From the sequence record PQ330092: a stretch of DNA of 64,000 bases; one strand, 5' to 3'. The DNA is from Escherichia phage JP4. The position numbers were made by a program, and so were the translations under genes. Shown piece by piece: positions 11,730-13,363 of this stretch (positions are counted from its first letter, which is position 1; each line of letters opens with the position of its first letter). The notes under the pieces were generated by a model. It worked only from the letters and a program-made list of their open reading frames with translations. It had not been told where the DNA came from and did not search any database.

Positions 11730-11933
11730 ATGCAAAAGATTAATACGATAACATTAAATGCATTACAGGATTCATTATTAGATAGTATTAAGATGTATTA
11801 CAATATACATTTGAAGGGTGGTATTGATAATTACGATTATTATTTGAGTTTAATTACATTTGAGCACCTTTCAGTACAGGACAGGATTTTACATCCTACA
11901 AATCCTAGGTATCCATCGATAGGTAAATTATGA
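11730..11933 (+). CDS. hypothetical protein (67 aa)
   Basis: ATG ORF; ATGA overlap with next gene. Confidence 0.55.
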   Translation: MQKINTITLNALQDSLLDSIKMYYNIHLKGGIDNYDYYLSLITFEHLSVQDRILHPTNPRYPSIGKL

Positions 11934-12484
11934 ATGAGATAGAGTTATTAGCACACAAGATAAGTACAATAATGCTTATCCTCAATAACAACCATCCTAT
12001 ATCGCATATAGATGGAATCCTGAGTCAGAGGACAGGTGGTAGTTTATATTTGTCCATAAACGCAGATATCGCAAGGAAATACATTGATATTGACATTGAT
12101 GTTGAAATCGAATATGATACAACGGGGATTGTTGATGTAGGTGCATTAATCAGTTCAAATCCAGTATCAGCATCCCCATTGACCAAAGGTGTTAGTACAG
12201 GATTCGAAGGGTATTTGTGGTACAATACCAATGATGATTATTTTATATATCAGCATTCCAATACAAATTATGATGAAGACAAATTTCAGTTCATAGACCC
12301 TTATGATGAAGCTGGCGTATTCCAACAATCATTAATCACAAAACCGCATGAGATGATGTATCTAATGTTATTCAGTACAATGCATTTGAATTCATTAATT
12401 AAAGGTTTAAAATTTTATATTCAATTAAATTTAGTCCATGTAGTTTATGATTTATTAATGCAAGGATACAGTTATGAAGTATAA
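11930..12484 (+). CDS. family B paralog, tandem duplicate copy 1
   Basis: N-terminus MNEIELLAHKIST and C-terminus LMQGYSYEV shared with 12556..13062. Confidence 0.75.
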   Translation: MNEIELLAHKISTIMLILNNNHPISHIDGILSQRTGGSLYLSINADIARKYIDIDIDVEIEYDTTGIVDVGALISSNPVSASPLTKGVSTGFEGYLWYNTNDDYFIYQHSNTNYDEDKFQFIDPYDEAGVFQQSLITKPHEMMYLMLFSTMHLNSLIKGLKFYIQLNLVHVVYDLLMQGYSYEV

Positions 12485-12517
12485 AATGATGTATACCCAA
12501 AGATATGATTTATGTTG
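12473..12517 (+). pseudogene. truncated 5-prime remnant of duplicated gene
   Basis: MKYKMMYTQRYDLC-stop; the intact copy at 13052 has CCCCAG where this has CCCAAAG. Confidence 0.5.
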
Positions 12518-12555
12518 AATTAGAAGATGATGCATCCATCAATAGGTAATAATAT

Positions 12556-13062
12556 ATGAATGAGATAGAATTATTAGCACACAAGATTAGTACAGTAATG
12601 CTTATGCTCAAGAATAATCATTCTATGCATAAGTACATTTATATAGGTGATTTACGCATAGAAGATAGATATGATAAATTATCGTTTTTGTTTAAAGATG
12701 AAAGTAATGCAAAAGTTTGTTTTGCAGCATTTGCCCAAGGCAATCCAGAACAAGCATCTCCTGTTATATACGAAAATAGTGAAGGGTATTTGTGGGTCAA
12801 CACAAACGATTATTTCTTTTATGATTTGAAACAAAATGATGAAGTAGAAGCACGAATTGATTTAATTGATATTAGTTCAGATTGTAGTTCTGAATTATTT
12901 CAGAAATCGTTATTATACAGTCCTCGTCAAATACATTATCTAAAGTTATTCAGTTCATTGTACGCGAATCCTTTAATTAAGGGTTTTAAATTTTATATCA
13001 AAATTCCGTACCTTTCAAACGTTTATGATATTTTGATGCAAGGATATAGTTATGAAGTATAA
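12556..13062 (+). CDS. family B paralog, tandem duplicate copy 2
   Basis: ELFQKSLLYSP; conserved ends, diverged centre. Confidence 0.75.
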   Translation: MNEIELLAHKISTVMLMLKNNHSMHKYIYIGDLRIEDRYDKLSFLFKDESNAKVCFAAFAQGNPEQASPVIYENSEGYLWVNTNDYFFYDLKQNDEVEARIDLIDISSDCSSELFQKSLLYSPRQIHYLKLFSSLYANPLIKGFKFYIKIPYLSNVYDILMQGYSYEV

Positions 13063-13363
13063 AATGATGTATACCCCAGATATGATTTATGTTGAATTAG
13101 AAGATGATGACGATGGGTGGAATTTGATTTATTCAAGAAGTTCAGGTTGGTACATGGCACATTTAAATGATTCGATAGTTACAGATTATTTTGTAGATTT
13201 CAATACATTATCCGATGAAGAATTGTTCCAACAGCAATTAGTGATTGACACGGGTGGTTATGATGTCTTATTATTAAAAAAGATACAGAAAGCTGTTATT
13301 GATTTTAAGCCCATGATATGGCAAAGGAAATATTATGACCTCGAAGTACCGTACCAGCAATGA
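13052..13363 (+). CDS. family B paralog
   Basis: EELFQQQLVID. Confidence 0.75.
   Translation: MKYKMMYTPDMIYVELEDDDDGWNLIYSRSSGWYMAHLNDSIVTDYFVDFNTLSDEELFQQQLVIDTGGYDVLLLKKIQKAVIDFKPMIWQRKYYDLEVPYQQ

Follow-up and report, generated by a model that had tools for sequence, protein, structure and literature searches.

The window analysed here is a stretch of 64,000 nucleotides from Escherichia phage JP4 (sequence record PQ330092). Region 9000-17000 of the window was matched by 33 phage records, all from PBECO4/121Q-group jumbo phages that infect Escherichia or Salmonella, and the closest relatives, at 98-99% nucleotide identity, were BF17, ECO103 4-12-1, EC22.5-2, and slurp01. By these matches, we assign the window to a PBECO4/121Q-like E. 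coli jumbo phage of the genus Asteriusvirus. Published genomes of this group have direct terminal repeats of ~20 kb (PMC13070987, PMC11895373). In fEgEco12, the homologous locus was found at 29-32 kb, a few kb past the left terminal repeat. The locus lies within a long plus-strand run of small paralogous genes without assigned function, and its genes, designated up1 and A to D, are listed with the other features in Table 1. In the literature on Asteriusvirus genomes, we found neither the A/B gene family nor the duplication described.

Table 1. Genes and sequence features of the A/B locus, with positions in the window
Feature	Position	Strand	Basis or remark
Upstream gene up1, 67 aa	11730..11933	+	ORF list
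Tail of up1 (last ~20 nt, ATCCATCGATAGGTAAATT), left end of the duplicated unit; carries the gene A ribosome-binding site AGG	11911-11929	+	Tail repeated at 12535-12550
Gene A, first phrog_19795 paralog, 184 aa	11930..12484	+	ORF list, PHROGs match, AlphaFold2 model
5' direct repeat, copy 1	11924..12000	+	87% identical to 12550-12626
Left direct repeat of the probable B cassette (final 42 nt of A and 59-nt C-head remnant)	12443..12532	+	Repeat alignment
Gene C start remnant, frameshifted by +1 nt; 14-codon ORF MKYKMMYTQRYDLC and stop	12474..12518	+	ORF translation
Duplication joint GAAGATGATG/CATCCATCAATAGG, C head fused to up1 tail copy	12532..12533	+	Unit alignment, relatives
Copy of the up1 tail supplying the gene B ribosome-binding site AGG	12533..12555	+	Sequence
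Gene B, second phrog_19795 paralog, 168 aa; probable cargo of the 578-bp cassette	12556..13062	+	ORF list, PHROGs, BLASTP
Right direct repeat of the probable cassette (final 42 nt of B and initial 58 nt of intact C)	13021..13109	+	Repeat alignment
Gene C (phrog_33987), 103 aa; 11-nt overlap of its start with the B end; source of the remnant	13052..13363	+	ORF list, PHROGs, relatives
Gene D, third phrog_19795 paralog (more distant), 188 aa	13335..13901	+	PHROGs, E=7.2e-86

An earlier reading of this DNA, made from the sequence alone, had proposed a tandem duplication of two genes with near-identical ends. Both ORFs are present on the plus strand (Table 1), and their ends are indeed alike. The 5' ends of A and B were 87% identical over 77 nt, and the 3' ends were 93% identical over 56 nt (12443-12498 versus 13021-13076), followed after one indel by an exact 32-nt repeat (12501-12532 and 13078-13109). 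Unit alignment resolved two head-to-tail units in the same orientation (~11911-12532 and 12533-13109), which were homologous over their whole length and each consisted of an up1 tail, a family gene, and a C head. Identity in the last three bins of this alignment was 0.87, 0.93, and 1.00. The 32-nt repeat was the longest exact run in the alignment, and a run of this length was reached in 0 of 20,000 column shuffles (shuffle maximum, 27). Similarity also reached to the left of the start codons, where ATCCATCGATAGGTAA (11911-11926) was matched by ATCCATCAATAGGTAA (12535-12550). Within the 64-kb window, the A/B end repeats were among the most similar, and only one pair of promoter-like elements, 90% identical over 71 nt, was comparable. 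The locus is a true tandem-duplication scar, well above chance.

The novel joint fuses a 59-nt copy of the C head to a copy of the up1 tail (~20 nt). As the sequence-only reading had claimed, the stretch that follows A copies the start of C almost exactly. It was alike in 57 of 59 columns, and ACCCAAAGAT stood in the place of ACCCCAGAT in C, which amounts to one extra base and one substitution. The truncated 14-codon ORF described there also exists; its coordinates are 12474..12518 and not 12473..12517, one base to the right. Because this intergenic repeat is present, the similarity is not restricted to the coding ends of the two genes. These results agree with the proposed anatomy, in which the joint is made of a downstream gene head and an upstream gene tail and the leftover C head is a decaying pseudo-start. 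An assembly artefact was excluded by the occurrence of the same arrangement in many independent assemblies.

The centres of A and B had been taken to be unrelated. In this study, we found that they are homologous instead. BLASTP aligned the two proteins end to end with 41% amino acid identity (E=5e-40), and both were matched over their full length by the phrog_19795 profile (A residues 1-184, E=1.1e-92; B residues 1-168, E=1.7e-32), in which conserved blocks occur throughout, including EGYLW-N-ND, FQ-SL, YL-LFS, and LIKG-KFYI. Gene D, just beyond C, was also matched end to end by this profile and had 26-29% amino acid identity to A and B. The AlphaFold2 model of A had a mean pLDDT of 78. Sequence profile searches with A, B, C, and D gave zero matches in Pfam, NCBIfam, and PDB, and the PHROGs matches for the genes of this region were to families of unknown function only. 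For the family, 6 proteins were retrieved by a profile search across 1.84 billion representatives, and one of them, a 3956-aa bacterial cadherin-repeat protein, was rejected as spurious. In BFVD, the phrog_19795 protein resembled solely viral proteins without functional annotation, and the named lookalikes came from RaK2, GAP32, fHe-Yen9-03, pEa_SNUABM_47, and Serratia phage BF. Judged only from position and plasticity, our guess for the family is an early, accessory, possibly host-interaction role.

For the state of the locus, we read 20 annotated phage genomes together with 13 more contigs. Among the 33 matching records, six had A and B in the window clade, seven had B together with A', the divergent sister-clade allele of A at the same position, 19 had A or A' alone, and one (A4) had B alone. 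Three of the seven A'+B records (WPEC5, EC.P1, and vB_Ec-M-J) were assigned from match length only, and nine of the one-gene records, including RefSeq duplicates of PBECO4 and 121Q, were placed by equal match length. A and B were both present in the window, slurp01, BF17, ELP-22, ECO103 4-12-1, TH47, and three more assemblies, and A' and B were read in WPEC3, CMSTMSU, fEgEco12, and Turkey3. The two-gene sequences, 12 besides the window, stem from two clades that are ~25% diverged. When the junction was looked for in these relatives, the same joint was present in all 12, that is, in every two-gene genome read. Exact and gapped junction patterns had no matches in IMG/VR or JGI metagenomes; only look-ups of exact proteins added copies of the junction, and the arrangement was the same in every one of them.

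A was found alone in PBECO4, G17, 121Q, CRJP21, UB, phAPEC6, SD-6_S16, and UE-S1, and A' alone in ph0011 and Ecwhy_1. In all such genomes read, the gene runs directly into an intact C. The 19 one-gene records were shorter than the window by 578-584 bp, and the repeat period is 578 bp. B was found alone in A4 and in seven metagenomic or genomic contigs, always with a gene for a signal-peptide protein upstream, and no single sampled genome had up1 followed directly by B. The core of B in this A4-like clade differed from that of the window by a dS of 0.05-0.07. Neighbour-joining trees were built for gene A and for the right flank; they rest on few differences, and A+B and A-only genomes were interspersed in them. 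This suggests that the state of the locus changed several times or that it segregates in a recombining population.

We compared the window with the phages of the WPEC3 clade along the locus. The ~600-bp tract with B was ~97% identical between the clades and B itself was 98.8% identical, against 73-84% for the flanks. The B core was 98-100% identical with a dS of 0.016, whereas identity was 73-74% for the A core, 78-85% for the upstream genes, 76-79% for C, and 80-93% for D. Counted per 40 nt, there were 10-14 differences to the left of ~12460, 0-2 from there to ~13060, and 11-28 beyond. Both limits of the high-identity tract fall inside the left and right direct repeats (Table 1). The left end of the cassette was composite: the first 27 nt of window B were A-like and unlike the B-only alleles, and the 23 nt upstream formed a patchwork in which TATCCATCA resembled the up1 tail beside A and ATAGGTAATAATAT was identical to the B-only genomes. 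Selection could partly account for the high conservation of B between the clades; however, third positions in B were conserved as well. B is probably a repeat-bounded 578-bp cassette that is exchanged and deleted by homologous recombination, the steps of which we infer from these alignments.

A different explanation is that the two-gene state is ancestral. The duplication would then be as old as the split of A and B, conversion would have homogenised the ends, and the one-gene genomes would be independent deletions, without lateral transfer. Tandem paralogs that undergo conversion classically show homogenised ends around diverged cores, and the A-like start of window B points in the same direction. 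The A-only state would also follow from a crossover in the 3' repeat, and after a crossover in the 5' repeat, B would be the sole copy. However, this explanation does not account for the near identity of B while A, C, and the upstream genes differ by 16-27% between the clades, and raw identities suggest a far more recent coalescence for the B tract than for its flanks. The B-only genomes are no simple deletion products, since their upstream gene is a different one. Furthermore, the remnant of the WPEC3 clade resembled the C head of the A4/window type and not the local 'LTL'-type C head, which is the opposite of what local conversion predicts and argues that the joint was made in another genomic background. 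We therefore consider an ancestral two-gene state without transfer unlikely, and the exchange of B as a cassette the better reading.

The duplication had also been called recent. The codon alignment of A and B gave a core dN of 0.58 and a core dS of 1.35, which is saturated, with a dS of 1.02 overall. The dS between A and A' was 1.29, comparable to that of the A/B core. In contrast to the cores, dS was 0.42 in the first 25 codons and 0.82 in the last 30 codons, and the non-coding remnant was ~97% identical to the C head despite the saturated cores. The ends and the joint appear to be much younger than the cores, or to be kept alike by recombination. Cores so diverged, with ends and joint so well preserved, do not fit a plain recent duplication with later divergence. 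A recent in-situ event, with replaced or very rapidly diverging centres and a junction that is starting to decay, would explain why the near-exact remnant and the ends of 87-100% identity look young, but it is highly improbable given the core dS, the junction in 12 other sequences of two clades with flanks of 73-84% identity, the frameshift fixed in six window-clade phages, and the separate B-only clade whose B core lies so close to that of the window.

The joint itself differed between the lineages. The remnant reads ACCCCAAGAT in the window-clade relatives and ACAAAAGAT, in frame, in the WPEC3 clade. The frameshifted form was found in slurp01, BF17, ELP-22, ECO103, TH47, and the window, and the in-frame form, which is 6 nt longer and opens a 26-codon ORF (MKYKMLYTKDMIYVELEDNDDVSINR and stop), was found in WPEC3, CMSTMSU, fEgEco12, and Turkey3. 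Both the +1 frameshift and the 6-nt deletion were common to all window-clade A+B phages read, so the frameshift is fixed across a whole clade and the junction is not, as had been thought, caught mid-decay in this genome; private to the window remnant is a C-to-A change, in ACCCAAAGAT. The joint of BF17 had an extra 12-nt slip duplication and that of ELP-22 had a substitution. The WPEC3-type joint, GACGATG/TATCCATCAATAGGTAA, had 20 exact nucleotides (ATGTATCCATCAATAGGTAA) in common with the up1 tail of UE-S1, which points to an ATG microhomology as the probable crossover site. From the lineage-specific changes of the joint across the two-gene genomes, the scar is old and shared, and it is decaying slowly and differently in each lineage. 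A second scar of identical design was observed in WPEC3-clade phages at the C/C2 pair.

The junction was the most variable piece of the shared tract, with 12 of the 17-19 differences at 12489-12533, as would be expected of a non-functional remnant. That the remnant is instead a useful intergenic element, a short leader ORF coupling the translation of B to that of A, has little to recommend it: the 26-codon ORF of the WPEC3 clade is intact, starts inside the end of A' exactly like gene C, and has its stop 7 nt short of the B start codon, an ATG, but the ORF of the window clade is truncated to 14 codons, with 37 nt between its end and B, the insertion, deletion, slip duplication, and scattered substitutions fall in this very stretch, and an AGG ribosome-binding site lies 9 nt upstream of gene B for its own use.

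We regard an old, shared scar, with B as a cassette lost and exchanged through the flanking repeats, as the likely account of the locus. A and B would be old paralogs, or captured alleles, of the one family phrog_19795, brought together by a single illegitimate head-to-tail recombination. This event, probably at the ATG microhomology, would have joined ~65 nt of the C head to the upstream gene tail (~20 nt). It is far older than this genome; the scar lies in every A+B Asteriusvirus sequence read. In the lineage of the window, the scar would afterwards have decayed by the 6-nt loss, the +1 frameshift, and the private C-to-A change. Creation of the joint left B bracketed by two ~90-nt direct repeats 578 bp apart, each made of the A/B 3' end and the C head. 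Recombination between these repeats would delete B and fuse A to the intact C, as in PBECO4, and during co-infection, recombination in the same conserved boundaries would insert B into a one-gene genome. These steps, and the direction of transfer between phages, we infer from the comparison of finished genomes. The sequence-only reading held that the locus shows how the array grows. It is a fair illustration of the mechanism; what the comparison directly shows is the gain, loss, and exchange of a cassette, with no fresh duplication here.

Several origins may have led to this arrangement. An in-situ duplication, after which the copies diverged for a long time while gene conversion preserved the likeness of ends and remnant, would account for the data about as well as an unequal recombination that joined a phage carrying allele A and a phage carrying allele B. 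A duplicate of A that was later overwritten by a B allele is another possibility. The B-only clade favours the versions with allele capture, as does the fact that the remnant is still so close to the C heads of today, and the patchy 5' end of the cassette fits some gene conversion as well.

The closest described system is shuffling mediated by PeSLs. In T4-type phages, non-essential genes are flanked by these short conserved repeats, through which genes are inserted, deleted, or replaced and mini-circles are formed (PMC2839356). PeSLs are non-coding cassettes with a strong sigma-70-like early promoter and a stem-loop terminator (PMC2839356, PMC4122927). As with the PeSLs of T4-type phages (Arbiol et al. 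2010; Comeau et al. 2014), small non-essential genes lie in a plastic region between short flanking repeats, repeat recombination explains the differences between close phages, and a route is provided for the lateral transfer of single genes. Unlike PeSLs, the Asteriusvirus repeats are coding gene boundaries, in which the 3' end of one gene overlaps the start of the next. No promoter-like site was found in 12485-12555; 11000-14500 had 20 such sites against a shuffled expectation of 25.7 and no terminator-like site. A PeSL-type regulatory cassette was ruled out, as the junction has neither a promoter-like nor a terminator-like site. The locus follows the same logic as PeSLs without being one of them.

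In the textbook course of multigene families, illegitimate recombination first duplicates a gene in tandem, and unequal crossing-over and gene conversion then act on the copies. The A/B locus shares with such families the head-to-tail units, the joint with a truncated neighbour gene, the homogenised ends with diverged cores, and the copy-number polymorphism via repeats. It differs from them in that the copies are far more diverged than their joint and in that one copy moved between lineages, so the pair may be two alleles that were assembled rather than one gene that was copied. In poxvirus gene accordions, K3L expands and collapses in tandem under host pressure. There, too, a viral tandem array changes copy number up and down by repeat recombination; however, the poxvirus copies are near-identical, recent, and under acute selection, whereas the A/B copies are old and diverged, and the variation is limited to the presence or absence of one unit. 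In lambdoid and other tailed phages, mosaic boundaries fall at gene junctions (modular evolution), and exchange tracts end at conserved gene-boundary sequences, as they do here. Unlike in lambdoid mosaicism, the A/B boundary is duplicated in direct orientation within one genome, and therefore intramolecular deletion is added to intermolecular exchange.

One tentative and rather improbable extension is that the conserved gene boundary, at which a phrog_19795 3' end overlaps a phrog_33987 ribosome-binding site and start, might serve as a standing recombination linker, by which diversified alleles of this jumbo-phage multigene superfamily are stacked, dropped, and traded between co-infecting Asteriusviruses and the array grows by allele capture. 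The second scar at the C/C2 pair of the WPEC3 clade fits this idea. If it were true, the boundary would be conserved for more than coding and would be a coding counterpart of the T4 PeSLs, and the array of >30 paralogs would grow by capturing the alleles of other phages, not by self-copying.

The process is ordinary, known phage genome plasticity, for which we propose no new mechanism, and we assign no function to the genes. The locus provides a nucleotide-resolved example of how arrays of small genes of unknown function are remodelled in jumbo phages, from an illegitimate joint and the direct repeats that result from it to repeated loss and the lateral spread of a 578-bp cassette between lineages ~25% apart. 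It also cautions that the best-preserved ends mislead when a duplication is dated. Some Asteriusvirus phages are studied as phage therapy candidates, and the A-only, B-only, and A+B states are a simple PCR-sized marker with which recombination in Asteriusvirus can be followed.

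Gene C (phrog_33987) was found to be doubled in WPEC3, fEgEco12, Turkey3, and Ecwhy_1, which carry both an 'LTL'-type C and a 'VSG'-type C2, and the C2 allele was present alone in 121Q. The C/C2 joint consists of leftover sequence from the head of gene D (ATGACATCGACGTACAGTGAAAGCAATGAGTACAAT) and then 19 nt of the 3' end shared by genes A and B (AGTTATGAAGTATAAAATG); A, B, and D are phrog_19795 paralogs. The C/C2 joint is a second scar, with the same design as the joint between A and B. The window does not contain the C/C2 scar.

A gene whose 109-122 aa product has a signal-peptide-like segment at its N-terminus was inserted immediately upstream of the position of B or of A', the divergent allele of A. 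This gene was observed in Turkey3 and all genomes that have only B, and not in the window. It is a further presence/absence cassette at this boundary.

In BF17 (L014, 1574-1597), a 12-nt tandem slip, ATGAAGTATAAA x2, was observed where the frameshifted remnant of the head of gene C begins. The GGATAC variant at the end of gene A was shared by the window and TH47 and was absent from BF17. In CMSTMSU (L006), A' and downstream genes were split by frameshifts (1011-1570 and 2469-3230). The CMSTMSU record is marked UNVERIFIED_ORG, and these frameshifts are probably sequencing errors, not biology.

Coordinates of repeated and inserted features in the window and in homologous loci of relatives
Feature	Sequence	Position	Size or spacing
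C/C2 pair	L004 (WPEC3)	2146-2795	
C/C2 pair	L007 (fEgEco12)	2446-3104	
C/C2 pair	L008 (Turkey3)	2777-3435	
C/C2 pair	L012 (Ecwhy_1)	1863-2521	
Signal-peptide-like protein gene	L008 (Turkey3)	1313-1642	
Signal-peptide-like protein gene	L010 (A4)	1173-1523	
Signal-peptide-like protein gene	L021	2635-2994	
71-nt element, 4 copies	window	240-310, 575-645, 1215-1285, 2084-2154	
Second tandem family, about a dozen ORFs	window	3625-9230 and 10775-11223	~70 aa; spacing ~210-220 bp
Five tandem paralogs	window	19944-22245	~150 aa; spacing 437-484 bp

Each 71-nt element contains a near-consensus promoter (TTGCAT/TTGACA, 17 nt, TATAAT) and then GTTTTACATAGAGCGGGGGAA, and two of the four copies were 90% identical. 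The elements probably represent early promoters that recur together with a common leader. The ORFs of the second tandem family have a common core around LGTNYQE-YV, and their region contains a 55-nt repeat family of 12 copies with 61-78% identity.

On the + strand of the window (9464-37789), no fewer than 31 ORFs, each 100-200 aa long and including A, B, C, and D, carry the motif E-E-x-[YFL]-F-Q-x-S-[LT]-[VI]-[YH]-D about two-thirds along the ORF (for example, EEYYFQQSTVYD and EEGYFQGSTVYE). The motif is similar to the TEV-protease site (ExxYxQ-G/S), which is probably a coincidence. In the five tandem paralogs, it takes the form GPWDSEEYYFQ, and repeats among them reach 218 nt with 62-78% identity. 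The motif-bearing ORFs look like a single very large paralogous superfamily occupying approximately 28 kb.
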